Notes: generated by a model from the letters alone, not told the origin. DNA of 32,000 nucleotides from Candidatus Kuenenia stuttgartensis (GCF_900232105.1 NZ_LT934425.1:4374154-4406153), one strand, 5' to 3'. Shown: positions 9,020-24,794, counted from the stretch's first letter. A program made the numbers and translations.

Positions 9020-9029
9020 GGATTTACCT

Positions 9030-9087
9030 CGCTAGCGTTTAAATCAGAGGCGCGGCTTTTTGCGTCCCCTGCATTTTTTTGTTGGGC
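9030..9087 (-). other. attC-like recombination site C (58 bp)
   Basis: On the minus strand: GCCCAAC (a perfect RYYYAAC), bulged stem atgcaggggacgc / gccgcgcctctgat, then TTTAAAC-GCTAGCG. It shares the core GACGC-AAAAA-GC...CTGAT with site A. Confidence 0.55.
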
Positions 9088-9088
9088 G

Positions 9089-10057: not shown

Positions 10058-10203
10058 TTATTTGTATTTAAAACGCCCAACCATTGATTATCACAATCAA
10101 TTGCCCTGATAACTTGATAAAAGTACTATTATCAGGTAAAATTATTATGTAAAAAATTACCTTATAATTTTACTTCATAGACAATATAGCTTAGGAGAAA
10201 AAG

Positions 10204-10566
10204 ATGTCAATCAAAAAAGAGAAAAGGTTGCTCGATGAAGTGAAAGATATAATGAGGCTTAAGCATTATTCCATCCATACAGAACGATCATACTGTGATT
10301 GGATTAAACGATATATTCAAAATACCACCGAATGACCAGTAGAGAGGATTTAAAGGACAGTGAAGAAAAAATAGAGCAATTTTTGATCCACCTTGCCGTG
10401 AAATCTGGCGTTGCCCCTTCTACCCAGAACCAGGCTATGAACGCACTTGTATTTTTGTACAAGAAAGTTTTAAAAGTATCATTAAAAGAAGAGATTAATG
10501 CTATACGTGCACAGAAGAAGATGAATATTCCAGTAGTCAAACCGATGGAGTCAAACCTTATCTATT
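10204..10566 (+). pseudogene. IntI-type (integron integrase-like) tyrosine recombinase, N-terminal fragment #1
   Basis: MSIKKEKRLLDEVKDIMRLKHYSIHTERSYCDWIKRYI, then a frameshift near 10315, then EKIEQFLIHLAVKSGVAPSTQNQAMNALVFLYKKVL...IPVV. The catalytic domain is absent. It is cut at the left inverted repeat of the 10547..10809 element. Confidence 0.75.
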
Positions 10567-10809
10567 GACAAAAGAGTCGATAGCATAATCGCTCCGGATA
10601 GCTCTGTGAGGGACGATAGAAGGCAATTCTTGTTGAAAAGGATTCCTGTCTTTTAGGGCTTTCGCGTTATATCCACTTAAACCCTGTTAAGATTACTATG
10701 AAAAAGTGTTAAGGAATGTCAAGCCTGACAAAACAGAGCCATCAAAATCTTAAATGTATGATCGTTTTGGTGGAAAACACTTTATTGTCAATAGGTTAGG
10801 TTTGACCCC
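10547..10809. mobile_element. 263-bp element bounded by 25-bp inverted repeats (MITE-like, or an oversized attC)
   Basis: ggagtcaaaccttatctattgacaa (10547..10571) matches the reverse complement of 10785..10809 in 22/25 positions. No coding capacity. I did not recognise a target duplication. Confidence 0.5.
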
Positions 10810-10835
10810 GCGAATTCCTCAGACCACCGCAATGT

Positions 10836-11141
10836 TCACATTGCAGAAGTGTAAACATGCACCTCTTCATCAAGGCGATTCTTTAATCTATCTTTTTCTA
10901 TTTCAAGATCATATCTTGCTTGAAGATTTATCCAAAACCTTTCTGAAAGACCAAAAAACCTTGATAGTCTTAAAGCTGTATCTGGAGTTACAGAACGTTT
11001 GCCCTGAACAATCTCATTTATTCTGCGTGCAGGTACATTAATATCTTTAGCCAGCCGGTACTGACTAATACCCATGGGTTTGAGAAATTCTTCCATCAGA
11101 ATTTCACCTGGATGAATTGGATCTAATATCTTTTTTGCCAT
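10836..11141 (-). CDS. higA: HigA-family antitoxin (XRE HTH)
   Basis: IHPGEILMEEFLKPMGISQYRLAKDINVPARRINEIVQGKRSVTPDTALRLSRFFG is a typical HigA/VapI HTH. Confidence 0.9.
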   Translation of the reverse strand: MAKKILDPIHPGEILMEEFLKPMGISQYRLAKDINVPARRINEIVQGKRSVTPDTALRLSRFFGLSERFWINLQARYDLEIEKDRLKNRLDEEVHVYTSAM

Positions 11142-11150
11142 CGTTACCTC

Positions 11151-11432
11151 CTAATGATAATCTACTATTTCAACGTTGTAAGCATCTCCTCCACGCCATT
11201 CAAAACATATACGCCATTGATCATTAATACGGATACTATATTGCCCATTCCTATCTTTCGATAGTTTTTCAAGATGATTATTCGGTGGTATACGTAAATC
11301 CATCAGGATTTCAGCACCTTCAAGTATTTCAAGTTTTCTTCGGGCAGTTTTTTGTATATCCCGTGGAAGTTTGAGTGATATTCGACGATTGAATATTTTC
11401 TCTGTTTCTTTGCAAGCAAAGTTTTTTATCAT
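11151..11432 (-). CDS. higB: HigB-family toxin (RelE/ParE superfamily, plasmid-maintenance killer)
   Basis: 93 aa. [26 protein letters not shown] is typical of HigB. Lies upstream of higA. Confidence 0.9.
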
Positions 11433-11439
11433 TTATAAG

Positions 11440-11468
11440 ATAGTATTGCATCTCGTTAATAATGTCAA
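11440..11468 (-). promoter_or_regulatory. Sigma-70-type promoter internal to the higBA cassette
   Basis: On the minus strand: TTGACA, 17 nt, TACTAT. The -10 box ends 7 nt before the higB ATG, which implies a leaderless or near-leaderless mRNA. Confidence 0.5.
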
Positions 11469-11488
11469 ACGTTATTATCACTTCTTTA

Positions 11489-11547
11489 ACATAACGGGAA
11501 GTTCGGCGGCGCGGGTCAACGCGTCCGCGGTAACGCTTGGTTATAAC
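11489..11547 (-). other. attC-like recombination site D (59 bp)
   Basis: On the minus strand: GTTATAAC, bulged GC-rich stem caagcgttaccgcggacgcg / cgcgccgccgaacttccc, then GTTATGT. It starts directly after the stop of 11549..12370. Confidence 0.6.
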
Positions 11548-11548
11548 T

Positions 11549-12370
11549 TTAATATCTCATTTTTAAATATTCAGTTACTTGAAATTTCTTCATATATGGT
11601 TTTGACCTTATGTCATTCATTAATTCCCAATAACAATGTTTAGCAAAATCACCCTTTATTTCGTCTGGATATGTGTAGTGATACCTTTTAATATCTTTGC
11701 TTGGTTCATAAACTATGGGGCGGTGGAATTCTGGTTGAAGATACTCATAGATACCCCACCTTATATTATTGAGAAACTCAGCTATCGCACTGCTATGATA
11801 AGAAAAGATATCATCATGAAACCATTGATAAAATTCTTCAATAATAACCAGCGCGTTATCATCGCTTAAAGTAATTCCGTTTCTATTGAATATTGTTTGT
11901 AACTCTTTTACTACCCCCGAAAGGCGGCTGAAATTATGTTTTGAGATATTTCCACAAATTTTAATAAACTCGACTCTTTTTATAGATAAATTGGTTTCTA
12001 ATTCTATTGAAGGGAGCCATATTTTTTCCACAACAACTTCTATTGAAAGCCATTGCCTAAAATCGCTGACACAATTTTTAAGGTTTTCGATTGAGTTGTT
12101 TTGTTCAAATTTGGGTGAATCACAAACTGATTGGAGAGCACTAAGATAAGTTGATTGTTCACCTAATACCTTTTTATCAGAACACGAGAGGAAATCGACA
12201 AGAATGATATTGAAAAATTTTTTATGGGTCCTTGACGAAAATTGAAATTGAGAATAAGGATCATTTCCTATCACGTTCCCTATTTCAAAATTAACCATTT
12301 CATCAATAAGCTCTTTGACAGCCTTAATAATAATCACTTCGCGTTCAGTATCGGTAAATTTCATTTCCAT
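11549..12370 (-). CDS. Hypothetical protein, 273 aa (first cassette of the right-hand sub-array)
   Basis: Clean ORF flanked on both sides by GTTATAAC. I recognised no family. Confidence 0.65.
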   Translation of the reverse strand: MEMKFTDTEREVIIIKAVKELIDEMVNFEIGNVIGNDPYSQFQFSSRTHKKFFNIILVDFLSCSDKKVLGEQSTYLSALQSVCDSPKFEQNNSIENLKNCVSDFRQWLSIEVVVEKIWLPSIELETNLSIKRVEFIKICGNISKHNFSRLSGVVKELQTIFNRNGITLSDDNALVIIEEFYQWFHDDIFSYHSSAIAEFLNNIRWGIYEYLQPEFHRPIVYEPSKDIKRYHYTYPDEIKGDFAKHCYWELMNDIRSKPYMKKFQVTEYLKMRY

Positions 12371-12384
12371 ATGTTATAACATGA

Positions 12385-12434
12385 ATTAGCCGTACTAATA
12401 GCCGTCTTATAAGACGGCTATTAGTACGGCTAAT
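12385..12434. repeat. Perfect 50-bp palindrome built from ACGGCTAWT 9-mers (attI-like region)
   Basis: attagccgtactaatagccgtctta|taagacggctattagtacggctaat. A further direct copy of acggctatt lies at 12457..12465. The palindrome starts 4 nt after the GTTATAAC box at 12373..12380. Confidence 0.8.
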
Positions 12435-12575
12435 ATTTTCACCGGTGACTTATTATACGGCTATTCGGGCATATAATAACGTTCACGAATATTTTGCCGG
12501 TAATATATCTTAAATTATCTAAATACTGCAATATTTTTTTTCAAAGTAAAAATTACCTCTAAGTCTAAACCTACA

Positions 12576-12830
12576 TTACTTGATGAGGTGCATGATGCAA
12601 ACCGGGTAAAGCGCTATAGCATGGGAACAGAAAAGAGGTGTGTTAACGGGATTAAACGCTTTATCATTTTTCATGGAAAGCGGCATCCGTTACACATAGG
12701 AGAACATGGAGTCAGTAGATTTCTTTCTCGTCTTGCAATTAAGAAACAAGTGTCTGCTTTCACACAGAATCAGGCATGAAGCGTCATTGTATTTCTTTAT
12801 CAGGAAGCGCTTAAACAAGAACGCGGATAA
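12576..12830 (+). pseudogene. IntI-type tyrosine recombinase, N-terminal fragment #2
   Basis: LLDEVHDANRVKRYSMGTEKRCVNGIKRFIIFHGKRHPLHIGEHGVSRFLSRLAIKKQVSAFTQNQA, then an in-frame TGA, then SVIVFLYQEALKQE. It has no recognisable start codon and no catalytic domain. Confidence 0.75.
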
Positions 12831-13051: not shown

Positions 13052-13219
13052 CTATTTATCCCTCCCACTTTTTTCTGATACCACAAAAGGAGGCATTGGA
13101 ATGTTTTTGATAACATCCGGCGATTCCCAATCATGTAACAAACTATCAAACATACACCTATTCTCGCCTCGAACATAATAAACACCTGGCGGCAAATAGC
13201 ACCCTTTATCCATACACAT
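13052..13219 (-). CDS. Small hypothetical protein, 55 aa
   Basis: GGAGG sits 6 nt upstream of the ATG at 13219. Translation: MCMDKGCYLPPGVYYVRGENRCMFDSLLHDWESPDVIKNIPMPPFVVSEKSGRDK. The longer ORF-track version has no RBS. Confidence 0.4.
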   Translation of the reverse strand: MCMDKGCYLPPGVYYVRGENRCMFDSLLHDWESPDVIKNIPMPPFVVSEKSGRDK

Positions 13220-13596
13220 CAGGTGCCTCCTTTCCGGAAAAAAGTGGTAAAAAGTAATGTGTTTCAATACCGGGCAAAAAACGCGCAGACGCGGGTACAC
13301 TGGTACAGAACAAGAAATGTTACGCTGTCTGCGCAAAAAAAGTCGGTAAAAGTTTGCCAGTGTACCTGGGTATCTTCTCTAAGAAACAATTCGATAAAGT
13401 AATTTGTTCTAATTCATAAAATTTTTTTAGAATTAACGAAAGCTAAATTTCCATCGCCATTCATTGTGAACAATTATAAGAATTCTCACGCCACCTTCTG
13501 TTATCCTATTTTTCTTTTTCTGACAATACTAATTCAAAAACAATGTAATGCAAGATGAATAGTTGTCAAAATTCAAGTTTTTTTAACACGATACCT

Positions 13597-14178
13597 TTAG
13601 AAATTTATTTTGGTTTTGGAAACCAGAATTAAAATGGACATGCCATAAGCGCACAAATTAATGGCCAAGACCAAGGCCATGTAAAGCATTCCTGCCAGCG
13701 GGAAAAAAACAAAAACTAAAACACCCATGATCAGAGTAACAATCCCGGCGATCAGCATCCAACCCCAGCGTGGAGAAGGGCGGAATGCAAAGGCCATAAC
13801 GATTTCAAGCGAACCTTCCAAAAGGAGAAATACACCGATCAGGATACTGAGTCCCATAAGCCCTGCGGCAGGAAAAAGCAGCATTATTCCTCCCGCGATG
13901 ACAGAGAGGATACCGGATAACAGCAATAGCCAACGCTCACGCCGTTTAAAAAACGCAAAGACCTGAAAACCACCGCTCAACACCAACAAAATACCGACCA
14001 GAATATTGATGCCAAGCGCTGTCGCAAAAGGCAAAAACGCCGCTAATAATCCGGAGAGTAAAAAAACAATGCCTTCAAAGATATACCAACCCCGCTGTTT
14101 TGAGATTTCTTCCTTACGCCTTTGTTTCAAGGCTCCAAGGTCAATTTCTTCTTGTTTAAATTCGTAGAATACAAACAT
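13597..14178 (-). CDS. hdeD: HdeD/DUF308-family membrane protein
   Basis: Six glycine-rich TM helices (GILLVLSGGFQVFAFF, LLLEGSLEIVMAFAF). ATG at 14178 preceded by AAGGAG. The ORF-track extension to 14328 overlaps the end of the clp gene. Confidence 0.75.
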   Translation of the reverse strand: MFVFYEFKQEEIDLGALKQRRKEEISKQRGWYIFEGIVFLLSGLLAAFLPFATALGINILVGILLVLSGGFQVFAFFKRRERWLLLLSGILSVIAGGIMLLFPAAGLMGLSILIGVFLLLEGSLEIVMAFAFRPSPRWGWMLIAGIVTLIMGVLVFVFFPLAGMLYMALVLAINLCAYGMSILILVSKTKINF

Positions 14179-14206
14179 GTTTATCTCCTTTCTGTATTGA
14201 TAGAGG

Positions 14207-15961
14207 TTATCTCCTGAAACGGATTTCTTTTTCCCCTTGGATTTCTTCGCTGTTTTCTTGCCGGGTTTGCTTTTTTTCCATGACAACCTCTTTCTTTTTC
14301 TTGTCATAGGAGATAACAACGAAATCACCGGGCTTAAAACTTTGCCCCAGCATCTTTTCCGCCAGACCTGCTTCGACTTCTGAGCAAATGTAGCGCTTCA
14401 GCTCACGCGCACCAAATTCAGGTTTAAATCCGATATCAGACAGATAATCGATCAGGCTATCATTAAAGTCCAGCGTGATCTCCTGAGCATGGGCAAGGCG
14501 TTTAACCCGTTCCATCTGCAGGGCTATAATATCTCGAATCTGCTCTTTGCAGAGAGAGTGGAAGACAATGATCTCATCAATCCGGTTGAGAAATTCCGGA
14601 CGGAACCGATGTAGCAGCTCATCCATCAATCTTGATTTCAGATCATCATAGGAAAGCTGCTCCTTTTCTTCTTTTCGGGAATTTTCCTGAATGAGATGAG
14701 AACCGATATTACTTGTGGCGATAATAATCGTATTGGAAAAATCAACCATGCGTCCTTTTCCATCCGTTAAACGTCCGTCATCAAAGACCTGCAACAGGAT
14801 GTTGCAAACATCAGGGTGCGCTTTTTCAATCTCATCCAATAGCACTACAAAATAAGGGCGTCTGCGCACACGCTCGGTGAGTTGTCCCCCCTTCTTCATA
14901 ACCAACATAGCCTGGAGGGGAACCTATCATACGCGCCACGGCATGTTTTTCCATGTATTCAGACATATCAATACGCACCATGGCATCTTCATCGCCGAAT
15001 ACCATTTCAGCCAATGCCTTGGCAAGCTCAGTCTTACCGACACCCGTCGGACCCAAAAACAAGAAGCTGGCAATTGGTTTACTGACTTCACATAAATCGG
15101 CGCGAGACAGGCGCACGGCAAGGCTCACAGCTTTGACAGCCTCTTCCTGGCCGATGACACGCTCATGGAGTTTTTCTTCCATTCTCAGGAGTTTTTCCCG
15201 TTCTTCTGCCGTGAGATCACTGACCGGGATACCGGTCAAAGAGGATACGATTTCAGCAATATTCTGCATTGTAACAACCGGCGTTTCGCTGCTGCGGTTT
15301 GCTTGACATTCCTTATCCTGTTCATCGACATGCTTTTTTTTGACTTCAATATTGGCATGTATTCTTTGGCCTTCTCATAATCCTTTCGTGTATTTGCGGA
15401 CTTTTCCTCTCGTTCCAGGGCCTTGACTTCATTTTGCATCTTCAGAATTTCTGATGGGCGAGAAGTTGCGCGAATACGCACACAGGAAGCGGCCTGATCA
15501 AAAGGTCTATCGCCTTATCCGGCAGATAGCGATTTGTCACGTAACAATCGGACAATTCAGCCGCCGCTGCAATCGCCTCATCTGAAAGACTGACCTTCTC
15601 ATGCGCTTTTTCGCGCAGCTTTTTGCAAAATATCCTTGGCATCGTCACTCAGGTAATTGTCCAGGTCTACAGACTCGCGGTCACCAAGATTTTGGTGTGC
15701 ACGGTGGGAGATATCCGATGGCTCATGACCAATAACACTGTCGAAAGGATCTCGGCCACCAAAAAAAGTATCAAAAAGTGAACCGCCAAACATGGATTCA
15801 AGTGGTGAACGGAAACCACAGCCGCTGCGGCCACCCGCTCGATGCAGCAATTTCTGATAATGGTCATCGCAGAGCTCTCTGGTTTTACGAAGGCCGTTTT
15901 CAATAACTTTTGCACGATAGGCGGCTGGTGCACTGCAAACATCAAATCTTCCGTTGCCCAT
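14207..15961 (-). pseudogene. ClpK/ClpG-like AAA+ disaggregase remnant (internal deletion of N2/NBD1, at least 4 frameshifts)
   Basis: Five ORF pieces in different frames. They cover the N-terminal part (CSAPAAYRAKV...LCDDHY...SPLESMFGG), the D1-small domain ([36 protein letters not shown]), a linker, and NBD2 ([33 protein letters not shown]). Frame changes fall at 14886-14891 (C6), 15334-15341 (T8), about 15500 (A4) and 15607-15611 (T5). Confidence 0.7.
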
Positions 15962-16155
15962 AATATTAATCCTTTCTTTGTGTAGTATTAGAATTATCGG
16001 TCGAGTAGACGGCTTGAGTACGCCAGCCGTCTACTCGATCGAATTATCACATGTGCCGTTTACTCTTCTAACATATGTGGAATAATTTATTTGTCTTTTT
16101 GCCTTCTTTTGAAATATAAATATTTAACAAGCGATCATGTTTTTCAACCTTTATC

Positions 16156-16286
16156 TTAATCGGGATCGACATGTTCAGGTAATCTCATTGTACTTGTAAA
16201 AAACTGTGTAGCATCTTTAAACATACTATCAAGCGAACGCCGGTGCAAGTAAGGCATGTGCCCACCATGATATACTTTGAATTATA
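16156..16286 (-). pseudogene. 3' remnant of the S10 serine carboxypeptidase gene, separated by the IS
   Basis: The minus strand reads FKVYHGGHMPYLHRRSLDSMFKDATQFFTSTMRLPEHVDPD*. This supplies the catalytic-His motif (GGHM) missing from 17856..19388. Confidence 0.7.
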
Positions 16287-17855
16287 CCTAAATCCTGCAA
16301 ACGATTTTCGCAATGCGAAAAAGGGATGTACTGTCTCCATCTGCGGTATACTTACCACTCTCAAAAGACTAAAAAAACGAAATACAACGTCGGTTTTCTA
16401 CTGAAAAACTACATCCAGTGACATGCGTTCCCACTTTTCCCATTCCTCCTGATGGAGAAATTTCTCCGGCAATTTTAATGTCATCTGCCGGCTTCTCTCC
16501 ACCAGTTTCCCTGCCACACGGATTAACCACAGTCTCATCGTCTTTACTTCCCACTGTTGTATCACTCCACCACTGAGCAATCCCATCCACTTCAAAAGAT
16601 TATACGCTAACACCGCACACTGAAATAGCGCAGCATTGGCCAAAAATTCACCCGTACGTATGTGCCCCGCATTCATCTGTCCTTTACTCTCTTCTATCAA
16701 AGTCTCGCAGGTAGCCCTCTTTCCATAACAACGATGCGCTTCCATCGGACTTAACCGCTCCGTTGTAACGTAACAAAAATACTCATACACGGACACTTCT
16801 ACTAATTTCTTTTCTCTTTTGACCAATTGCCGCACTGCCACAAAACGTCTCGCACGATCCCACCCTGCACATCGATACCAAAATTCAGCCTGTTCCCATC
16901 CTGGCTCCCCTTTCACCTCATTCCATTTCTGCCCTTCAAGCAATCCTTCCAGATTCTTCAGCTTTACCTTAATCAGATATCCCGCCAATATTGACTCAAG
17001 GTATTCAAGTAATTCTCCGGTAAAAAAACCGCTGTCTCCCCGAAATACCACCCTTACCCCCTTATTCATGTACGCCATACATTCCTTCATGAACTCTACT
17101 ACTCCGTTACTCGTGTAGGCGCTTCCACAGCGGAACCAACTATGTAATACCTCCTTTGTTTCTGCAATAAATGCCATTAAGGGATGATACGCCTTCTGCC
17201 CCTTCTTGTGCGGATTATATCCTACCTCTGCACCCTCCTGTTTCCCATATACACCATCTACGGTAGAATCAACATCTATCCATACTTCGCAAAGAGCACT
17301 CCTGAGTTTATGGCCTGATCTCACCGCACGCTTCCATATCTTTCCCCTAAACCGGTGGATCACCCCCGTCAGTTCCACTATATCTCCCTGACTCGCCAGC
17401 TTCATAATACGTCCTATCGTAGTATCTACAGGTACCTCTTTCCAACCGGACATCTTCTTCAATACCTCATCTGTACACACCTTCATCACCTCTACCATCG
17501 ATGTCGCCCCTGCTATCAACCCTATCACTACCATTTGTACCGCATCGACAAACTGATACCGGGCATTTGCTCCACGATCCTTATGGACCGCTTCATGGAC
17601 TCTCTCCCGGAACATCAGCTTACCCATAAATTCAATACCGGTAAAAGCCCTGCATGTACCGTTAAGCCTTTCCCGCTCATCTCTGCCTTGATTTTCGGTT
17701 GTCTTTTGCTGTATTTTTTTGCTATATTCTTCATCGAAATGGTGAATCTCCTTTCAGGTGTTTTTTGTTATCAATATACCGCCGAATACCTTGGAAATCC
17801 TACCATTTCAATCCTATTCCTGCAACAAGGCTTTGCCTTGTTTGCAGGATTTAGG
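16287..17855 (-). mobile_element. IS1380-family-like insertion sequence (1569 bp)
   Basis: 16-bp terminal inverted repeats CCTAAATCCTGCAAAC (16287..16302 and the reverse complement of 17840..17855). 5-bp direct target repeats TTATA at 16282..16286 and 17856..17860. One transposase ORF. Confidence 0.85.
16398..17627 (-). CDS. DDE transposase (IS1380/IS4-superfamily type)
   Basis: 409 aa. WIDVDSTVDGVYGKQEGAEVGYNPHKKGQKAYHPLMAF is a typical DDE N-terminal catalytic segment. A later segment reads FRGDSGF. Confidence 0.85.
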   Translation of the reverse strand: MGKLMFRERVHEAVHKDRGANARYQFVDAVQMVVIGLIAGATSMVEVMKVCTDEVLKKMSGWKEVPVDTTIGRIMKLASQGDIVELTGVIHRFRGKIWKRAVRSGHKLRSALCEVWIDVDSTVDGVYGKQEGAEVGYNPHKKGQKAYHPLMAFIAETKEVLHSWFRCGSAYTSNGVVEFMKECMAYMNKGVRVVFRGDSGFFTGELLEYLESILAGYLIKVKLKNLEGLLEGQKWNEVKGEPGWEQAEFWYRCAGWDRARRFVAVRQLVKREKKLVEVSVYEYFCYVTTERLSPMEAHRCYGKRATCETLIEESKGQMNAGHIRTGEFLANAALFQCAVLAYNLLKWMGLLSGGVIQQWEVKTMRLWLIRVAGKLVERSRQMTLKLPEKFLHQEEWEKWERMSLDVVFQ

Positions 17856-19388
17856 TTATATATTATCGCTAATCTCAGGATCCAGATCCATTTGCTTAAT
17901 CGTAATCCAGGTAGCATAATATGGAGTTACCAGATCAAATACACCATGAATGATTAATACCTGCATATGGGGATTTATGCACATTGCCTGCTTTAAGTCC
18001 GCTACAGCTTCGGCAAACCCTTGTTGCCCCTGAATACCCGACCACCAGTTCCACGATTTGAACACCTCCTCATTTAAGAGGAGATAGGGTAACTCAGTCT
18101 TAAAATCCAAATGGTCACGCACATAGGTATTGAAGGCTGCTGTTACTGGTGCATTGAGCCGGTCGAGATACGGATCGCCACCAGCAAGCATCTGTCTTGC
18201 AGGATCAGAATCGACAAGTTTAATCGACCCATCGTATAAACTCACCAAACGTCTCTGGTCTGACAATAAGGCTTTAGCGAAGCGAGCCGGTGGGACGCGT
18301 CCTGCCCAACGATGCAGGATGTCCGCATGTAATCCCATCATGTTGCTCGATTGCTCAATCCAATCCGGCAGCAAGTCACCACCGGCTAATCCGGTTAAAT
18401 ATTCTGATAAGGCGAAACGCTCCACTTCACCAAGCGAAACACGGGGGTTATCAGCTTTATACGTTATCATGTCACTGCGTTCATGGAATGCCGCCACTGC
18501 AGTGTAGCTCGGCAGCAAGGCCACCCAAGGCCACAGGCTTCGTTCGCTGCCCCAAAGCAACCCAAAATCAATCGCCGGAGAGATGAGTACCAACCCACTT
18601 GGCACAATGCCAAAATCTGACTGAAGCAGTTTTGATAAACGTGCGACCCTAAAACCGCCATAGCTTTCTCCGGCAAGAAAAATTGGCGAAAGCCAACGTT
18701 CCTCCTTGGTCAGATAAGTGCGAATAAAGCGGGCCAGAGAGTCGGTATCTTCCACCACGCCCCAGGCGTATTTACCTATCGATTTTTCCTTCGAAGGTCT
18801 CAACTTCCGCCCTTTATTGTTTTCGGTGTCATCCTTAATCTCACGACTGTAACCCGTTCCAACAGGATCTACAAAGACCAGATCCGTAAACGATAGCCAA
18901 CTCTTTGAATTATCGAGTAATCGGGCTGGCATATGGAGTACCTTTCCATCGTCACTGAACTCGACGCGTTTTGGACCTAAAGCTCCCATGTGCAGATATG
19001 CCGAGGCAGCACCTGGACCACCGTTGAAAACAAAGGTCACCGGCCGTGGGTAATCATGTTGTTCGTCAGCGGTATAACTGATATAAAAAATCCTGCTGAC
19101 TGGCTTTGCCTCCTTATCCGTTATGGTCAGCGATGCTGCGGTGGCAAAATACTCCAGTGTTTTATCCGCTGTCGTCAGAGTATGTTGGGTAACGGCCCTG
19201 TTCGATGCGTCAAGAACACGCTCTTCGGCCTGCTGTTTTTCCACCTCAACCTTCTTGTTGTCTGGCACACCCAATACAATAGACGTATACATAAAGCAAA
19301 CACAAATCAGCGTAAAGGCTGATATTGTGAATCGATTAGTGCTTCCTAATGTGTTAAACATTTTTAACCTTGTTCTAATGTAATCCAT
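17856..19388 (-). pseudogene. Peptidase S10 (serine carboxypeptidase), 5' part truncated by the IS insertion
   Basis: Signal/TM N-terminus, RPVTFVFNGGPGAASAYLHMGALGP, active-site LAGESYGG, and GVFDLVTP (Asp). The ORF ends inside the IS target duplication, before the catalytic His. Confidence 0.8.
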
Positions 19389-19442
19389 GGAAAAAGGCAG
19401 TCAAATCGACCGATCTTTTGAAATGGCATGATTCGGTAAAAC

Positions 19443-21111
19443 TTACCAACTTAACACCACATACTGCTGCGCATTGCCTCTCCGAAGGAGCAGCAGTATA
19501 CTTTTATCATCGCTGCTCTTCTCGACCGCACGCTTGAACTCGGCAGCATTTTTCACGGGTTCGCGATCCACCTGCATAATCACAGTGCCAGGCTCAATGC
19601 CTGCCATTGCAGCAATAGATCCTGGTCTGACTTCCGTGACCACAACACCTTCCCCCATTTTGACTCCAAATTGTTCAGCCAACTGCGGGGTTAGCGTTTG
19701 TACCGTCAGACCAAGTTTCTCGGCGCTTTGCGACGAAGTCTGTGCAGCCAGTTTTTCTCTGGTGAGCTTGCCGATTGTCACAGTAAGCGTCATTTGTTTT
19801 CCTTCCCTCAGGATAGTCAACTCTTCCGTGCTGCCCGGCTGAGTGAGTGACACTCTGTTACGGAAACTGCCGACATTTGTTACCGGTTCCCCGCGATATG
19901 CAATGATTATATCCCCTTGACGCAACCCTGCCATATCAGCCGGTGAATCGTCTGAAACCTGAGAGACAAGTATACCCTTGACCTGTTCAACACCGAACGA
20001 CTTTGCAAGATCAGCGGTAAGCGGTTGAATCACAATACCAAGGTAACCACGCGTTACTTCTCCTTTATCGATCAACTGATCGGCGATCTCCCTGGCAAGA
20101 TTGATAGGAATCGCAAATCCCACACCCATATATCCGCCACTGCGGCTGAAGATGGCGGTATTGATGCCTACCACCTCAGCATCCAGATTGACCAGTGGAC
20201 CACCAGAGTTACCGGGATTAATCGCTGCATCTGTCTGGATGAAATCTTCATAATCGTTAATACCAATACTCGTACGCCCCTTGGCGCTCACCACACCTAC
20301 GGTGAGGGTATGACTCAGTCCAAATGGGTTGCCAATGGCAACAACCCACTCCCCAACCTCCAGCTTGGAGGAATCACCCAGTTTTGCCGCCGGCATACTG
20401 CTAGCCTTGATTTCTATAACCGCCACGTCTGACTGGGGGGTCCCGACCTGTAATTTTAGCGTTATATTCAGAACCATTCTGGAATTGCACCCGGATAGTA
20501 TCAGCATTTTCCACAACGTGATTATTAGTAAGGATGTATGTTTTGTCAGACAGCAATCCGTCCTTTACCTCGAACACAAATCCGGAACCCTGTCCAATAA
20601 TACGGTGTTCACTTTGAGGTTTATCAGAAGGCGGTGTCCGAGGAATACCGGGGAATGGTTCACCAAAGAAACGTTTGAAAAACTCATCCCCAAAGGGCCA
20701 TGAATCGCCAAAGGGTAACCGAAACCGTGTTCTCGCCGAATCAGATACTTTCGATTCAACCTGTATCATTACTTTGTTAAAATAATATGCAAAACAACCT
20801 TAATTCCCTCTATTTAAAAGGATTTATGCTTTGAAAAATCCTTGATTAATACCATACAATAAGTAGGATGCCGAACGCAAAGGCATACAAAATATATCAC
20901 TTTATGAACGGTTTCAGTGGTTTTTAACAAAGTAATGCTGTATGAAAACCACAGATGGCGATACTTCCCGTGCCACAGATGCAAAGGCCTTACCGGTCTG
21001 GCGCAGGTCTTTAATACCGTTGTCTTCTAATGCATAGGCTGGCATTACACTAAAACAGAAAAGCGTTACGTGCAGCATCATTAATTTTATCTTCCTCGTA
21101 TTCTCCTGCAT
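19443..21111 (-). pseudogene. htrA: HtrA/DegP serine protease with two PDZ domains, disrupted
   Basis: Three pieces: signal peptide plus SPSVVFIQ (20914..21111); GSGFVF...ILTNNHVV (20401..20769); GNSGGPL plus 2 PDZ domains (19443..20516). They are interrupted by the 171-bp MITE and by a +1 frameshift in the G6 run at 20435..20440. Confidence 0.85.
20767..20937. mobile_element. 171-bp MITE inserted in htrA
   Basis: Perfect 16-bp terminal inverted repeats: cattactttgttaaaa (20767..20782) and ttttaacaaagtaatg (20922..20937). 6-bp direct repeats ctgtat at 20761..20766 and 20938..20943. Removing the element restores ...SPSVVFIQVESKVSD... in frame. Confidence 0.85.
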
Positions 21112-21218
21112 CCTTAATTTCTATTGCTACCGTTGCCGATCTTAATCAGTTTAAAAACTAATCTTGCAAACCTCTCTTTACATAAATTGTCTCCTCTTGC
21201 CCATAAATTTCGCCTATC

Positions 21219-21265
21219 ATGGAGGCGCTGTCATTACATAAAAATGCTCCAATAAGCGCCTCCAT
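21219..21265 (-). terminator. Hairpin downstream of the hsp20 gene at 21283..21789
   Basis: Perfect 11-bp stem atggaggcgct / agcgcctccat with a 25-nt loop. No clear U-tract. Confidence 0.4.
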
Positions 21266-21282
21266 AATAACCAACAACAACA

Positions 21283-21789
21283 TCATTCTCCCTTTATTTC
21301 AATCTTACGCACATTTTCCTGCGCTTTTCCACTCTTAGGCAGATTGATTTTCAACACCCCTTTTTTGAACGAAGCCTTCACTTTTTCCTGGTCAACTTCA
21401 CAGGGAAGTTGCAGAGAACGGTAAAAGGATCCGTAACTTCGCTCTACATGATAGTACTCTTTGTCCTTTTCTTCCTTTTCCTGTTTCTTCTCCCCTTTAA
21501 TAGTGAGCACATCGTCTCTTAAAGTAATTTCAACATCATTTTGATCCATTCCCGGCACTTCTGCGATAATCTCAATTTCTTTGTCATTTTCACTTACATC
21601 TATCTTCGGTGAAAACTCGGCGAATCGCTCTTCCTTTAATGGGAGGGACGGGAATCTGTCAAACCCTCTGAAGAAATCGTCAAATAATCGGTCCACTTCT
21701 CTCTGAAGGGTCGCTACAGGGTGTTGCAGTCCTGATAGTGCAGGCTGCTGTTTTCTTCTATTCCAGGTTATTAAATCTTTCAAGGCCAT
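21283..21789 (-). CDS. Hsp20/alpha-crystallin small heat-shock protein
   Basis: The alpha-crystallin domain reads IDVSENDKEIEIIAEVPGMDQNDVEITLRDDVLTIKGEK...SFKKGVLKINLPK. Confidence 0.9.
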   Translation of the reverse strand: MALKDLITWNRRKQQPALSGLQHPVATLQREVDRLFDDFFRGFDRFPSLPLKEERFAEFSPKIDVSENDKEIEIIAEVPGMDQNDVEITLRDDVLTIKGEKKQEKEEKDKEYYHVERSYGSFYRSLQLPCEVDQEKVKASFKKGVLKINLPKSGKAQENVRKIEIKGE

Positions 21790-21913
21790 GGTCGACCTCC
21801 TTTCTTATCAATTAAATGTTACATGAATGTACAAAACTTTTTTCTGCATGGTACAATAAAAATCTGAAACAGTCGGGGGAAACAGGACCTTGCAGTTCCT
21901 CACATATCAACCA

Positions 21914-22951
21914 TTATTTCTTTCTCTCCTGAGTTTGCTCAGTCTTCTCTTCAGTGTGAGCTTGACCGGTTTCTTTGCTAAACAAATTGACTGCCCGCTC
22001 CCAGAACTTGCGAATCTTAGATGCCGCTCCTTTTTCTTCAATCTTTGTCGTCAGCTTGGTGATATCATCCTCAAGCTGTTTCACAATTTTCTTAGCCTCC
22101 TCGTCTTCCAGCAGTGCTCGGTATGTTCCCAACTGGATTTGAGCCAGTCTCAAGTTGTCCTGTGCAGCTTCGTGCTTACCCTCTTCAACCATGCGCTCAG
22201 CCAGCCTTAACGCATGCTGTACTTCTACAAGCGGATTGTCTACCTCATGGAAAACGAGCTTTACACCTTTCGTCTGCGCAAGGGCCAACTGGACCAGTGC
22301 TTCGTCCGGCTTTCCCTTGTCCAATAAAGACTCTGTATGGTTCAATTTTCGCTCAATATAGCTGAGGTCTACAAGCACAGATGTATAAATGACATCAACA
22401 TCTGCAAGTCGCAGTCCTTTAAGTGCCGCCTCCTTCTCCTTGGCGTCAATGATCGGTTCTACAATTTCCATAGCGATAGTGCCCTCATATAAGGCAATCT
22501 TGTCGTCCTGGACCTTGTCAACCTCCCGATAAACCACTTTACCGCTGACATCTTTCACCGATGTCGTCACCGTAGTAACGGGGAGTAATTCCCTCACAAC
22601 CTGCGTCAGCCTCTGAGCATTCTTGATCTCCGGTTTTGCAGCTTCGGGGTTCTGATCGATGAGACTTTTTGCTGCATTGTTCAGATGATTGACGATACGC
22701 GAAGTCAAGAGAGATGCTTGGTGCTTATCCTGCGCAGACAAAGCGCCTTCAGTGTACCGTTCTACGGTTGTCTGATAGCGTTTACCACTGCCAAACGTGA
22801 TGTATGATTGATCCCGCTGCTCTCCGCCACCCAATGCCTTTTCTGAGGCGATGACAGTCGCGCACATAAACAGAGAGAGAGCAATTAATGCAACCACACC
22901 AGAAATTACTGTACCTTTTCGATCATGAAAAAACTTACGAATTACGTTCAT
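21914..22951 (-). CDS. yfdX: YfdX-family periplasmic protein
   Basis: Signal anchor. LKGLRLADVDVIYTSVLVDLSYIERKLNHTESLLDKGKPDEALVQLALA aligns with E. coli YfdX ([44 protein letters not shown]) as I recall it. I prefer the ATG at 22951 because it has an AGGAGA RBS. Confidence 0.7.
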   Translation of the reverse strand: MNVIRKFFHDRKGTVISGVVALIALSLFMCATVIASEKALGGGEQRDQSYITFGSGKRYQTTVERYTEGALSAQDKHQASLLTSRIVNHLNNAAKSLIDQNPEAAKPEIKNAQRLTQVVRELLPVTTVTTSVKDVSGKVVYREVDKVQDDKIALYEGTIAMEIVEPIIDAKEKEAALKGLRLADVDVIYTSVLVDLSYIERKLNHTESLLDKGKPDEALVQLALAQTKGVKLVFHEVDNPLVEVQHALRLAERMVEEGKHEAAQDNLRLAQIQLGTYRALLEDEEAKKIVKQLEDDITKLTTKIEEKGAASKIRKFWERAVNLFSKETGQAHTEEKTEQTQERKK

Positions 22952-23119
22952 TTCTTTCCGTTTCTCCTTTCTCATACTAAAAAGTAATATATTATATTAC
23001 GACATTACGACATAATATTACGACAAAAAATCCTTCCGTATTCGTTAATACTCACAGGCTGTTTCTCATCTCACCTGGCGTTAACCGCTTCAATCAACCG
23101 TACGTCACGCCACTCTCTG

Positions 23120-23530
23120 TTATCCTATCTGAATCTTCTTTGGTTGTGCTTCCGGCGCCTTTGGCAGTGTCAGGGTCAATACACCGTCTGCCAGTTTTGC
23201 ATCAATTTTTCCCGTATCAATGATATTTGATACGGTAAATTTCCTGGTATAATGACCTACATTGTACTCGGTATACACCGGATTAAGATGTTCATACGGC
23301 GTAAAGTCTATTTTTGCATCAACCTCCAGGACATTATTTTCCAGCACGACATTTACATTTTCCTTTTTCACACCCGGGACATCCATGGTGACGACCAGAC
23401 TTTTATCGGTTTCAACGATATCCGTCATGGGAATATAATATTTGCCTTGCACCGTTTTCTCTCCCTTATATTCTGTTTTTTCCGGTTTCTGACTTTCAAC
23501 CGTTGCTACTTCCTTTGTTTCATTACTCAT
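23120..23530 (-). CDS. Hsp20/alpha-crystallin small heat-shock protein
   Basis: PMTDIVETDKSLVVTMDVPGVKKENVNVVLENNVLEVDA...KLADGVLTLTLPKA. Confidence 0.9.
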   Translation of the reverse strand: MSNETKEVATVESQKPEKTEYKGEKTVQGKYYIPMTDIVETDKSLVVTMDVPGVKKENVNVVLENNVLEVDAKIDFTPYEHLNPVYTEYNVGHYTRKFTVSNIIDTGKIDAKLADGVLTLTLPKAPEAQPKKIQIG

Positions 23531-23551
23531 ACCATCCTCCTTTCAGGGTTA

Positions 23552-23974
23552 TTATTGAATTGCAATACGTTTTGGTTTCTCTGACTCCGCACGGGGCAGA
23601 GAGATTACCAGAAGGCCATCTATATACTCTGCTCTGACCTGATCAGATTCTACGTTAACCGGTAGTCTCAATGTCCTGTCAAATTTGGATGCAGTACGCT
23701 CAATACGGTGGTAACTGACATTTTCGCCGTAGTCGATCCTGCGTTCTCCGGATAGCCGTAATATGTTGTTTTTTACCTCTATGTTCAGATCCTCCTTCTT
23801 TACCCCTGCTAATTCTGAAACGAGCACCAAATCGCCATCTTTTTCAAAAATATTCATCGGCGGATACACCCCTCTACTGGTCGTAGTATTCTCAAAAAAA
23901 CCCGTGTCGCGCGCCAGGTCCATTGCCTCCTGAAGCCCTAATAATGTTTCCAATGTCCTTGATAATGGTAACAT
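23552..23974 (-). CDS. Hsp20/alpha-crystallin small heat-shock protein
   Basis: PPMNIFEKDGDLVLVSELAGVKKEDLNIEVKNNILRLSGER...EYIDGLLVISLPRA. AAAGGAGGA RBS. Confidence 0.9.
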   Translation of the reverse strand: MLPLSRTLETLLGLQEAMDLARDTGFFENTTTSRGVYPPMNIFEKDGDLVLVSELAGVKKEDLNIEVKNNILRLSGERRIDYGENVSYHRIERTASKFDRTLRLPVNVESDQVRAEYIDGLLVISLPRAESEKPKRIAIQ

Positions 23975-24084
23975 GACAAATCCTCCTTTCAGTTTCAGAA
24001 AAAATCAAATTACTTGACACATCAAAAATAACTCAATACATTTATACAAGAAAACCGGTTTTTCCCTTTCTGACAATGCTTATC

Positions 24085-24099
24085 GCAACAAATGTGCCA
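24085..24099 (-). promoter_or_regulatory. Sigma-54 (-24/-12) promoter upstream of the tandem hsp20 genes
   Basis: The minus strand reads TGGCAC-ATTTG-TTGC, an exact match to the TGGCAC-N5-TTGC consensus. It lies about 110 nt upstream of the ATG at 23974. Confidence 0.65.
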
Positions 24100-24398
24100 A
24101 ATTATATAAGTTATTGCTATTTCTAATGTTAGTATATTCTGTCTGTAGAAAAAACATAATATTCCGGGAAAATGGGAACGGTTATTCCCTTTTGTGTGGA
24201 TTTATATTCCCAAATCAGTTATCATTGTGCGTAAAGACGATGTACTCTTGTGTCAAATGATGGGTAATATCAAAATTATGTGTTCTGTGCTAATGCAGGA
24301 TGCATTTAAATCGATATACAAGAAACAACACACAATATTATGTTATGACTGTTTGGGAAATACTTGTCTCACTCACCTAAAATCTCATCAATGCAGGT

Positions 24399-24794
24399 AT
24401 GAATAAAAAAAAGAATTCTGTTCAAAAATGGCTCGTTCCGTATAACGGCGATAAGACCGATGTTCCGCCTTATTTCTTTACCGATGATGGAAGCATTGAC
24501 AAATCTATAATAGATAACCTTGATTCAGATGTTATTCTTTTGGACAGAGATCTCAACATTGTACTGATGAATAAGGCAGCGGAAAAGACATGTGGTGTGA
24601 GTTTTCACGAAGTAAAAGGTACCAACTATATGGCGTTACGACTGAAATCCTTAGAACAAGAGCTGTCAAAGAACTTGAATAATGTCCTTCAAACGAAGAA
24701 AACCTTTAATATTGATGTAAGGACGACCATGATATACACCCATACGATCAAAATCCAGACCATCAAAGAGGTAAAAAGTCCGCTCGATTTCTGA
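24399..24794 (+). pseudogene. Chimeric ORF: PAS-domain fragment fused to the C-terminal tail of an IntI-type recombinase
   Basis: The PAS-like part is IIDNLDSDVILLDRDLNIVLMNKAAEKTCGVSFHEVKG. The last ~25 aa, DVRTTMIYTHTIKIQTIKEVKSPLDF, match the integrase tail (catalytic-Tyr box TTMIYTH...SPLD). Confidence 0.6.

Follow-up and report, generated by a model that had tools for sequence, protein, structure and literature searches.

The chromosome of Candidatus Kuenenia stuttgartiensis, an anammox bacterium of the Planctomycetota, carries a block of minus-strand genes for small heat-shock proteins, proteases and a disaggregase. The question raised by this locus is whether it is the enterobacterial heat-resistance island (tLST/LHR), as a preliminary description suggested, or an assembly of other origin. 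The window analysed, meaning the whole stretch of DNA, is 32,000 nucleotides long. Pfam and NCBIfam profile matches show the named genes essentially where they had first been placed, in the minus-strand order hsp20A, hsp20B, yfdX, hsp20C, degP, S10 peptidase, clpG/K and DUF308 (hdeD-like); with a Planctomycete as host, the set does lie outside the Proteobacteria. The island consists of two modules, A (hsp20A to the S10 gene) and B (clpG plus DUF308), and is a distant, rearranged relative of the enterobacterial island. Most probably it is a two-module protein-quality-control island that was acquired horizontally by Kuenenia and is at present eroding.

Three small heat-shock genes of module A are intact. 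These are hsp20A (positions 23552–23974, minus strand; 140 aa), which matches NCBIfam Hsp14/Hsp20 models and displays 72% identity to its Scalindua orthologue, hsp20B (23120–23530, minus; 136 aa), with a Pfam HSP20 E-value = 3e-20 and 76% identity to Scalindua, and hsp20C (21283–21789, minus; 168 aa), with 84% identity to Scalindua. Among these, hsp20C comes nearest to the tLST sHSP20 (orf2), with 45% identity and an E-value = 1e-34. The yfdX gene (21914–22951, minus; 345 aa) is also intact and gives 50 bits with Pfam YfdX (gathering score 26.6). Its product, a protein recorded as YfdX in K. stuttgartiensis, has a hydrophobic segment at the N-terminus that is predicted to serve as signal or anchor, and the best nine PDB matches to its predicted fold are all YfdX crystal structures, including 3dza, 6uxt and 6a09.

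The remainder of module A is damaged in this strain. The degP/htrA gene (19443–21111, minus) is a pseudogene, recognised by 403 bits to TIGR02037 on a 357 aa fragment; in strains L004, L006, L008 and L009 it is intact, with 486–491 aa. It is interrupted by a 171 bp MITE (20767–20937), which carries perfect 16 bp terminal inverted repeats (CATTACTTTGTTAAAA) and a target-site duplication CTGTAT and is not present in four other strains. There is in addition an extra G (+1) at position 20435, but it sits in a homopolymer run and thus this frameshift could be an artefact. The S10 serine carboxypeptidase-like gene (17856–19388, minus; Pfam Peptidase_S10 62 bits, gathering score 21.9) has its 3′ end, including the catalytic-His motif GGHMPY, cut off by an IS1380-family element situated between the S10 gene and clp (~16284–17855, minus; NCBIfam IS1380 325 bits; transposase 16398–17627; terminal repeats CCTAAATCCTGCAAAC). 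The element is missing from strain L009, where the S10 form is 543 aa long with the sequence YHGGHMPY, and where the S10 stop and the clpG start are only ~195 bp apart on one strand.

Upstream of hsp20A by ~110 bp lies a predicted sigma-54 −24/−12 promoter, TGGCACATTTGTTGC (24085–24099, minus), the sole exact promoter match in the window. The palindrome GGGAACGGTTATTCCC (GGGAA-N6-TTCCC; 24174–24189) is a candidate activator-binding site (UAS) with no second exact match in the 32-kb window. Scalindua displays an exact −24/−12 promoter, TGGCACACTCGTTGC, at the position equivalent to that of Kuenenia, and the single exact match to the GGGAA-N6-TTCCC palindrome in its 21-kb locus is in the corresponding intergenic region, together with a one-mismatch second copy. 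A truncated regulator is found at 24399–24794 (plus strand). Its residues 1–105 correspond to the N-terminal part of a PAS/sigma-54 enhancer-binding protein, including a portion of the PAS domain, and share 58% identity with a 513 aa Scalindua activator that carries PAS, Sigma54_activat and HTH_8 domains. The Kuenenia regulator has neither AAA+ nor HTH domain; the 105 residues are joined in frame to a 26 aa integron-integrase-type C-terminal tail (24717–24794, plus), which matches the C-termini of tyrosine recombinases and IntI1, and the fusion open reading frame measures 131 aa in every Kuenenia strain. Module A, hsp20A through the S10 gene, is predicted to be an operon read from a sigma-54 promoter, with the PAS activator divergent to it. 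Published RNA-seq shows continued expression of module A genes: KSMBR1_4080 (htrA), KSMBR1_4084 (YfdX) and KSMBR1_4085 are up by log2 1.5–2.0 under ammonium limitation, and yfdX, degP and kuste3992 transcripts increase when ammonium is limiting (PMC7438415).

Module B starts with a clpG/clpK-type disaggregase pseudogene (14207–15961, minus), found in an equal state in all strains examined. The N1 domain is retained, N2 and AAA1 are removed by a deletion spanning reference residues ~129–453, and the M-domain and AAA2 are broken by in-frame stops and by three or more frameshifts. The N1 zinc ligands are C6/C9/C31/H34 (PMC10641755), of which Cys6 is changed to Phe in Kuenenia. The N-terminus had been thought to resemble the ClpG/ClpK-specific N1 extension, and the N-terminal fragment indeed matches ClpG/ClpK models only and aligns with 8p66, the solved structure of the ClpK N1 domain. 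The C-terminal fragment gives 289 bits with ClpK, 264 with ClpG and 256 with ClpB. The M-domain is short; the spacing from LPDKAID to Walker A2 is 161 in Kuenenia and 158 in every ClpG/K examined, vs. 219 in E. coli ClpB. A neighbour-joining tree places the Kuenenia Clp with intact ClpG-like proteins, which themselves yield 1245–1266 bits with ClpG vs. 986–994 with ClpB. The N1 match, the spacing and the tree grouping identify the gene as ClpG/ClpK type, not ClpB or ClpC.

The nearest intact clpG relatives, with 80–82% identity, are P0121, P0122 and the gene of L044; a DUF308 gene follows each of them. In Kuenenia this DUF308/HdeD-like membrane protein (13597–14178, minus; 193 aa; Pfam DUF308 E-value = 1e-22) is intact; its NCBIfam HdeD score, 51 bits, is under the cutoff of 189. 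It has 76–79% identity to the post-ClpG DUF308 proteins in L040 and L044, 50% to that in L041 and 33% to HdeD-GI. L041 and L044 are tLST-like clusters consisting of sHSP, YfdX, sHSP20, M48 peptidase or DnaJ and MerR, then ClpG and DUF308, with identities of 46–47% to YfdX1/2 and 47–55% for sHSP20. By sequence similarity, then, the nearest intact relatives of module B sit in tLST-like clusters. A 46 bp near-perfect palindrome (15997–16042) precedes the clpG start codon by 36 bp; no equivalent was found upstream of the intact clpG relative in L040. The segment 13486–13575 (minus) carries repeats D3 and D4 (blastn E-values of 1e-4 and 0.015, colinear) and is weakly suggestive of the ghost of a second module A start, possibly a degenerate copy of the region 3′ of the sigma-54 promoter with a copied hsp20B 3′ end.

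Integron-type (IntI-type) integrase relics are found on either side of the block, in agreement with the integrase fragments first described there. Opposite the C-terminal tail fused to the regulator is an N-terminal relic of ~90 aa with in-frame stops (12530–12830, plus; Phage_int_SAM_4 68 bits), and an additional N-terminal relic of ~115 aa with one frameshift is at 10204–10568 (plus; Phage_int_SAM_4 84 bits). A low-GC toxin-antitoxin block adjoins the island. The island occupies one common site, with 99.5–100% identity, in every K. stuttgartiensis strain recovered (7 contigs from 6 sources, namely four NCBI assemblies, one ENA assembly and one JGI metagenome); the available strains are mutually ~99.9% identical. 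In the comparison with the flanks, which had been proposed as a check on acquisition, the composition is only weakly atypical (GC3 of 0.40–0.51 in island genes vs. 0.36–0.56 in the flanks), so any transfer was not recent or the donor had a similar GC content.

Module A proteins display 66–84% identity between Kuenenia and one Scalindua MAG contig, putatively assigned by binning, whereas DnaA, the single protein used as baseline, shows 49–51% between Kuenenia and named Scalindua genomes other than the MAG (and 64–68% to Brocadia and Loosdrechtia). The gap between these identities indicates probable horizontal acquisition of module A. A scan of 185,579 species genomes with three peptide patterns, which divergent homologues may escape, detected the YfdX subfamily in 26, mostly Verrucomicrobiota; Brocadia and Jettenia gave no match, and Kuenenia itself was also missed. 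The Kuenenia YfdX has 71% identity to a Sedimentisphaerales protein and 66% to the Scalindua one. The claim of an acquired island is supported by the integrase relics, by the identity gap and, within that scan, by the distribution among sister genomes.

Several other origins can be considered. Vertical inheritance of an ancestral anammox stress locus would fit the single site in all K. stuttgartiensis strains, the presence in the Scalindua MAG and a composition near the genome average. It is nevertheless very unlikely, given the excess of module A identity over DnaA between genera, the lack of detection in Brocadia, Jettenia and other Scalindua species genomes by the peptide patterns, a YfdX as near to Sedimentisphaerales as to Scalindua, the unlike flanking genes in the two genera, and the integrase relics and toxin-antitoxin block that adjoin the locus. 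A bona fide tLST/LHR, received straight from Proteobacteria and later degraded by deletions, is hardly credible. The families do overlap (sHSP, ClpG/K, YfdX, HdeD-like, DegP), hsp20C resembles the LHR sHSP20, ClpK is the top-scoring model for the Clp C-terminal fragment and mobile-element relics border the block, and to this extent the proposed LHR/tLST-type set stands. However, the dna-hsp20-clpG core is missing, and dna/HTH, Trx, KefB, PsiE, orf11 and M48 leave no trace in the locus by tblastn to E 0.01. Identities to the LHR reference proteins are 30–62%, while the closest relatives (66–84%) are non-LHR, from Scalindua and from contigs of GC 47–51%; the YfdX is not an orthologue of YfdX1/2, and sigma-54 regulation is predicted. 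The LHR synteny did not hold either: the order differs, and the island is a mosaic in which the predicted sigma-54 operon and the clpG-DUF308 pair have separate relatives elsewhere. Direct transfer is thus largely refuted by the sequence evidence.

It is also unlikely, though less so, that the sigma-54 envelope-stress operon and the dead clpG-DUF308 remnant are unrelated neighbours that IS or integrase activity placed side by side and that at no time formed a functional unit. In Scalindua, module A (with an S10 remnant) occurs without module B; the closest module B relatives (L040, L041, L044) are without degP-S10; and an IS is at the module junction today. Against this, the IS-free strain has only the short same-strand interval from S10 to clpG, sHSP and YfdX genes lie beside ClpG-DUF308 in L041 and L044, and in L047 and L049 an hsp20A/B/C-like trio goes with an island of ClpK type; thus these families co-occur repeatedly.

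In the acquired two-module island, the intact ancestor may have worked as follows. With its PAS domain the activator would have detected a signal, upon which it opened the sigma-54 promoter. Unfolding cytoplasmic proteins would be held by the trio of small heat-shock proteins, ClpG would bind aggregates through its zinc-containing N1 domain and thread them without DnaK, and exported YfdX, DegP and S10 carboxypeptidase would chaperone or degrade damaged envelope proteins. Today another sigma-54 activator, possibly NtrC-like, may drive the promoter in Kuenenia. The decay noted earlier is confirmed: clpG and the island's own regulator are dead in Kuenenia, while the hsp20 genes, yfdX and DUF308 have stayed intact. 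The erosion is common to all strains for the activator, cut to 105 residues plus the integrase tail, and for clpG; in this strain the MITE and 1 bp indel also break degP, and IS1380 takes the S10 catalytic His.

Compared with the tLST/LHR of K. pneumoniae plasmid pKP121-2 (L002), the Kuenenia island likewise groups on one strand sHSPs, a ClpG/ClpK-type disaggregase, YfdX, an HdeD-like membrane protein and a protease of DegP type; it is bordered by mobile-element relics, and its clpG-DUF308 pair has its closest intact relatives in tLST-like clusters. In contrast, it lacks the dna(HTH)-sHSP20-clpG core, carries a single YfdX of another subfamily in place of YfdX1 and YfdX2 (no BLAST similarity; hhalign probability 5%), has an additional S10 peptidase and a predicted sigma-54 promoter with PAS activator, differs in gene order and identity, and resides in a Planctomycete with its disaggregase a pseudogene. 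Against the stand-alone disaggregases P. aeruginosa ClpG_GI and K. pneumoniae ClpK (PMC10641755, PMC8024975), the Kuenenia N1 aligns residue for residue with C9, C31 and H34 retained, conservation extends to the SPLESxFG and LFDxFFG segments, the M-domain is similarly short, AAA2 has 62–65% identity, and the intact relatives match the ClpG profile over its full length. The Kuenenia copy differs in the loss of N2 and AAA1, the frameshifts and the C6 to Phe change, and its clade (P0121–P0123) is ~60% identical to ClpK overall, with Ala and Glu at substrate-contact positions V17 and L21.

Deinococcus is already known as a tLST carrier (PMC8290217). In Deinococcus wulumuqiensis pDrdB (L003) the gene for a ClpG/K-type ATPase (951 aa) has a DUF308 gene right after it, with an sHSP remnant upstream, DegP nearby and integrase and transposases around, but YfdX and the sigma-54 operon are absent and identity to the Kuenenia clp is ~59% over the retained post-deletion region. 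The Candidatus Scalindua sp. OFTM180 locus (L012/L014) differs in its intact regulator (513 aa) and degP, a 60 aa S10 remnant, the lack of clpG-DUF308 and unrelated flanking genes. Its hsp20-hsp20-yfdX-hsp20-degP operon, however, has the same order, promoter, candidate UAS and divergent regulator as that of Kuenenia, with an S10 gene or remnant downstream in both.

The proteostasis genes in the window are a mosaic, non-proteobacterial relative of the tLST (LHR) heat-resistance island, with their own sigma-54 regulatory logic and in progressive decay. All of the genes listed in the preliminary description are found on the minus strand: three HSP20 genes, yfdX, pieces of DegP/HtrA, an S10 peptidase, Clp fragments and a DUF308/HdeD-like gene. 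They are treated here as module A (hsp20A, hsp20B, yfdX, hsp20C, degP and the S10 peptidase gene) and module B (clpG and the DUF308 gene). By exact-protein look-ups the window is 99.99% identical over 17 kb to GCA_027493735.1 and 100% identical to GCA_900232175.1, and the same locus is recovered also from two more NCBI assemblies, one ENA assembly and one JGI metagenome. The L004 copy of the locus (GCA_015075145.1) shows 19 gap openings relative to the window across the island, as well as a split dnaA; the assembly seems to be of lower quality, thus its indels are not to be taken as biology.

The clp gene (positions 14207–15961) was mapped by tblastn with K. pneumoniae ClpK and a Deinococcus ClpK-like protein. 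The N1 domain (reference residues 1–128) is followed directly by the AAA1 small subdomain (~454), with a deletion of ~325 codons that removes N2 and most of AAA1 (reference residues ~129–453). The M-domain and AAA2 are spread over three reading frames with internal stops and at least three frameshifts, and no single frame holds a complete N2-AAA1-M-AAA2 architecture. The pseudogene is identical in all available strains.

Five lines of sequence evidence assign this gene to the ClpG/ClpK type and not to ClpB or ClpC. Of the NCBIfam models, the first 120 residues match ClpG and ClpK only, and residues 5–41 align with residues 5–41 of the solved ClpK N1 structure (PDB 8p66, E-value = 2e-4); the resemblance to the ClpG/ClpK N1 extension, proposed previously, is right. 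The distance from LPDKAID to the second Walker A is 161 residues, compared with 158 in 15/15 ClpG/K-type proteins, 219 in E. coli ClpB and 101 in ClpA. In a neighbour-joining tree built on the AAA2 region, the Kuenenia sequence joins three intact metagenomic ClpG-like proteins (P0121–P0123, 77–83% identity) inside the ClpG/K clade, away from ClpB. These three proteins match the ClpG profile end to end with 1203–1266 bits, versus 980–994 bits in two pieces for ClpB; for the relatives at 80–82% identity the figures are 1245–1266 bits with ClpG and 986–994 bits with ClpB. The strict 'exception' cutoffs are 1900 bits and all relatives fall short of them, thus they are neither ClpK nor ClpG_GI themselves. 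The N1 zinc site of ClpG/ClpK consists of C6/C9/C31/H34 (Katikaridis et al., PMC10641755); the Kuenenia N1 retains C9, C31 and H34 and has Phe at position 6, which is Cys in 13/13 aligned relatives. A tLST confers extreme resistance to heat, pressure or chlorine; because clpG is dead, a tLST-like heat phenotype would be unlikely here.

A 46-bp near-perfect palindrome (15997–16042) precedes the clpG start codon by 36 bp. It holds an ACTCAAG half-site but the spacing is non-canonical, and a HAIR/CIRCE assignment was rejected. No equivalent is present upstream of the intact clpG relative in the metagenomic locus L040.

The closest intact clpG relatives, found in metagenomic loci, are each directly followed by a DUF308 gene, which is 76–79% identical to that of Kuenenia in L040 and L044 and 50% in L041. 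L041 (GC 47%) reads hsp20, YfdX (46–47% to LHR YfdX1/2), sHSP20 (55% to LHR sHSP20), MarC, DnaJ, MerR, ClpG, DUF308, and L044 (GC 50%) reads HSP20, YfdX (46%), sHSP20 (47%), M48 peptidase, ClpG, DUF308. L040 (GC 51%) carries an sHSP 3′ remnant upstream of clpG and, further upstream, a sigma-70-family open reading frame containing region 2. Two other loci, L047 and L049 (GC 64%), display an hsp20A/B/C-like trio (36–47%) next to HtpX, ClpK-like (71%), orf11, HdeD-GI (63%), Trx and KefB, and link the sHSP trio to classical tLST content. Likewise, on the Deinococcus plasmid pDrdB a ClpK-like gene is followed by DUF308. Going by these gene orders, the Kuenenia clpG-DUF308 pair stems from a tLST-like cluster lineage, and the gene families of modules A and B travel together repeatedly. 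An S10-based metagenome scan yielded no contigs linking the two modules; its patterns were too specific.

The tLST-like island spans 188–14905 in L047 and 5027–10071 in L049, with Trx at 59% identity. In L040, the open reading frame upstream of the closest intact ClpG relative (10–573) gives a weak Sigma70_r2 match and is followed by a small signal-peptide open reading frame and then the sHSP remnant (740–810), which ends ...AHYKDGILTVSVPKK. According to a review of tLST, some composite islands include a sigma-24-like factor. Among the Verrucomicrobiota loci L020–L036, the YfdX subfamily is, in many genomes of Chthoniobacter and others, directly preceded by an sHSP with 46–53% identity to the tLST sHSP20-GI, and a second sHSP often comes after YfdX. 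Thus the tLST adjacency of sHSP-GI and YfdX extends across phyla.

In module A, the lesions differ among strains. An IS1380-family element (~16284–17855; transposase 325 bits) cuts the S10 open reading frame of the window (17856–19388) just short of the catalytic-His motif YHGGHMPY, and the Ser-Asp-His triad is incomplete though the Peptidase S10 domain is recognised. The element is missing in the JGI strain L009, where the peptidase has 543 aa and its end reads ...QFKVYHGGHMPYL... The degP gene (19443–21111) is split by a 171-bp MITE (20767–20937), whose 16-bp terminal inverted repeats are perfect and whose target-site duplication is CTGTAT. The window degP also shows an extra G within a G-run at 20435, which could in principle be a homopolymer error. 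As a result of the MITE and the +1 G, the trypsin-like protease domain and two PDZ domains of HtrA/DegP (TIGR02037) do not share one open reading frame in the window; they do in the MITE-free strains L004, L006, L008 and L009, where DegP has 486–491 aa. The MITE is polymorphic among Kuenenia strains: it is also present in L005, L007 and L010, and L001 carries a variant without 41 bp and one terminal repeat.

The Kuenenia YfdX (345 aa, 21914–22951) is identical to the NCBI/UniRef entry 'YfdX protein [Candidatus Kuenenia stuttgartiensis]' and is present on 257 contigs. It scores 50.2 bits against Pfam PF10938 (gathering score 26.6). The nine best PDB fold matches of its predicted model (pLDDT 72) are YfdX structures, with probability 0.99–1.00 and a TM-score on target of ~0.5; a sequence-profile search against the PDB gave no YfdX match. 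By Pfam and predicted fold it is a genuine YfdX-family member.

The open reading frame at 24399–24794 was previously noted for its integrase-like end. That end holds, as the 26-aa tail matches tyrosine recombinase and IntI1 C-termini; the rest is a truncated activator not noted before. Here a PAS/sigma-54 enhancer-binding protein breaks off after residue 105 and is fused in frame to the tail; its 105 residues are 58% identical to residues 1–105 of a 513-aa PAS/Sigma54_activat/HTH_8 protein. The truncation is common to all strains. A cognate activator with the Sigma54_activat AAA+ and HTH domains is intact in Scalindua and is not found in Kuenenia, where residues 1–105 are what is left; the cognate activator of module A is dead in Kuenenia.

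The window contains a single exact match to the −24/−12 sigma-54 promoter motif TGGCAC-N5-TTGC, at 24085–24099 on the coding strand, ~110 bp upstream of hsp20A (23552–23974). Further upstream, at 24174–24189, the palindrome GGGAA-N6-TTCCC has its single exact occurrence in the window. A Scalindua MAG (L012/L014) shows the same layout with a divergent, intact activator. There the −24 GG/−12 GC promoter is conserved, TGGCACACTCGTTGC is found ~60 bp upstream of the first hsp20, and one exact and one near GGGAA-N6-TTCCC site are confined to that intergenic region; the gene order is hsp20, hsp20, yfdX, hsp20, degP and then a 60-aa S10 peptidase remnant. On the strength of the promoter and palindrome in the window and the matching arrangement in Scalindua, the segment from hsp20A through the S10 gene is read as a putative sigma-54-dependent operon. 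An Rfam search of the window gave no match, and thus no known RNA thermometer was found. A generic promoter and terminator scan performed no better than on shuffled sequence.

In strain MBR1, KSMBR1_4080 (htrA, kuste3995), KSMBR1_4084 (YfdX, kuste3993) and KSMBR1_4085 (kuste3992) are up by log2 1.5–2.0 under ammonium versus nitrite limitation, and a putative Hsp20-YfdX-DegQ operon was noted by the authors (PMC7438415). Another sigma-54 activator, e.g. of the NtrC type, may now fire the module A promoter. Such rewiring would act through the surviving sigma-54 promoter after loss of the module's own activator and of the ClpG disaggregase, and would offer a possible explanation for the rise of module A under ammonium limitation. 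The description of the locus as decaying is borne out: the regulator and disaggregase are gone throughout the species, and some strains have also lost the protease and peptidase. Kuenenia keeps the holdases, YfdX and the DUF308 protein, and transcripts are still made from at least yfdX, degP and kuste3992.

Whether the locus was acquired or inherited was considered from several sides. A GC comparison with the flanks, proposed earlier as a check, gave little signal: the GC and GC3 of island genes are barely different (GC3 0.40–0.51, compared with 0.36–0.56 in flanking housekeeping genes), thus composition is not relied on for horizontal transfer. Neither tRNA genes nor long direct repeats bracketing the island, sought as att sites, were found in the window. 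The module A proteins of Kuenenia and the Scalindua MAG are 72, 76, 66, 84 and 80% identical. The DnaA encoded in the same window is 49–51% identical to that of named Scalindua and 64–68% to those of Brocadia, Loosdrechtia and other Brocadiaceae, a baseline consisting of one protein taken from other Scalindua genomes; the MAG is an unconfirmed bin. A YfdX-subfamily profile scan of 185,579 species genomes gave 26 loci, most in Verrucomicrobiota, with single cases in Scalindua, Phycisphaerae, Kiritimatiellia, Victivallales, Desulfobacterota, Gemmatimonadota, Thiohalocapsa and others; none of the 26 loci from this pattern-based scan is from Brocadia or Jettenia. The best non-Kuenenia YfdX match is a Sedimentisphaerales MAG (71%), followed by Scalindua (66%). 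Integrase fragments had been described at both sides of the block, and IntI-type relics are indeed found there, three in all around the block; the IS1380 element and the MITE lie inside it. Taken together, the Scalindua identities relative to DnaA, the YfdX distribution, the Sedimentisphaerales match and the integrase relics favour horizontal acquisition.

The two flanking integrase relics share both type and orientation. A single integrase gene split by the island was considered and set aside, since the middle ~200 residues are missing, a third relic exists, and successive deletions fit equally. Only ~6 kb separate the dnaA gene (30651–32000, minus strand) from the island's right edge, which places the island near the presumed replication origin region.

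Beside the island, only the block at 8.3–12.4 kb is clearly low in GC. This block (8330–12370, GC3 0.22–0.31) lies between integrase relics and contains a HigB-like toxin (93 aa) and HTH_3 antitoxin (101 aa) pair on the minus strand (10836–11432) together with two open reading frames of 322 and 273 aa. It is probably a separate acquired segment adjoining the proteostasis block. A PADLOC scan of the low-GC neighbours gave nothing convincing. A perfect 50-bp palindrome with 25-nt arms and no loop (12385–12434; ATTAGCCGTACTAATAGCCGTCTTA / TAAGACGGCTATTAGTACGGCTAAT) is found just past the start codon of the 273-aa open reading frame, and an integrase relic follows ~100 bp further on. Positions 13486–13575, downstream of the DUF308 gene, resemble the sequence just after the sigma-54 promoter (24059–24083) abutting a copy of the final codons of hsp20B and downstream bases (23105–23128). 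This may, on weak statistical support, be the scar of a second hsp20A-hsp20B unit, later deleted. A second module copy left of hdeD was rejected, as tblastn showed no protein remnants and the likeness consists of two short colinear DNA repeats only. Elsewhere in the window, an HNH endonuclease gene (211 aa, 3712–4347) lies between thiD and lpxK, with two HhH-GPD glycosylase genes (597–1250 and 6811–7467) within the same 7 kb.

The locus was compared with the reference LHR of K. pneumoniae pKP121-2 by tblastn against the window at an E-value of 0.01. Homologues of sHSP20, HdeD-GI, DegP-GI and ClpK are found: hsp20C shows 45% identity to sHSP20, the three hsp20 genes 30–35% to sHSP20-GI, the DUF308 gene 33% to HdeD-GI, degP 40% to DegP-GI and the AAA2 region of clp 57–62% to ClpK. 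At this threshold HTH/dna, orf11, Trx-GI, KefB-GI, PsiE-GI and the M48 peptidase (orf15) have no match, so that of the oxidative-stress module (orf11, Trx-GI, KefB-GI, PsiE-GI, orf15, DegP-GI) only the DegP homologue is represented. LHR YfdX1 and YfdX2 give no BLAST match to the Kuenenia YfdX, and a profile-profile (hhalign) probability of 5%. The tLST core is a contiguous dna(HTH regulator)-sHSP20-clpG/K (PMC8290217). This core is absent from the window, where degP, the S10 gene and the IS lie between the sHSP20-like hsp20C and clpG. Compared with the envelope module (sHSP-GI, YfdX1, YfdX2, HdeD-GI), an sHSP-YfdX-sHSP order is present with a single YfdX, and DUF308 is placed after clpG. The mobile-element flanking and horizontal transmission of tLST are shared. 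The earlier label 'LHR/tLST-type' therefore overstates the case: the Kuenenia locus has its functional theme and some of its ancestry in common with tLST, and the core architecture and apparently two of the three modules place it outside tLST proper.

Carriers of tLST reported in the tLST papers considered here are Proteobacteria and Deinococcus only. No Planctomycete host is mentioned in the available portion of a 2025 survey covering 48,183 complete genomes (PMC12603250), and a literature search found no paper tying Kuenenia to ClpK or tLST. The present locus adds anammox Planctomycetes to the hosts of tLST-like proteostasis gene sets and is relevant to both tLST evolution and anammox stress physiology. 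It provides a regulatory hypothesis for the sHSP/YfdX/DegP operon (a sigma-54 promoter, a candidate GGGAA-N6-TTCCC site and a PAS activator) and a natural decay series of regulator, disaggregase, protease and peptidase, polymorphic among bioreactor strains of a wastewater organism. A wider reading, which we consider doubtful, is that module A represents an undescribed sigma-54/PAS operon family, moving horizontally between anammox and other PVC-group bacteria, a non-proteobacterial sister lineage of the tLST modules, and that it was rewired in Kuenenia to ammonium limitation. Current understanding is not overturned by the Kuenenia locus; the known island is a single arrangement among modules recombining between phyla, i.e. 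sHSP-YfdX, ClpG-DUF308, and DegP or M48 peptidases.
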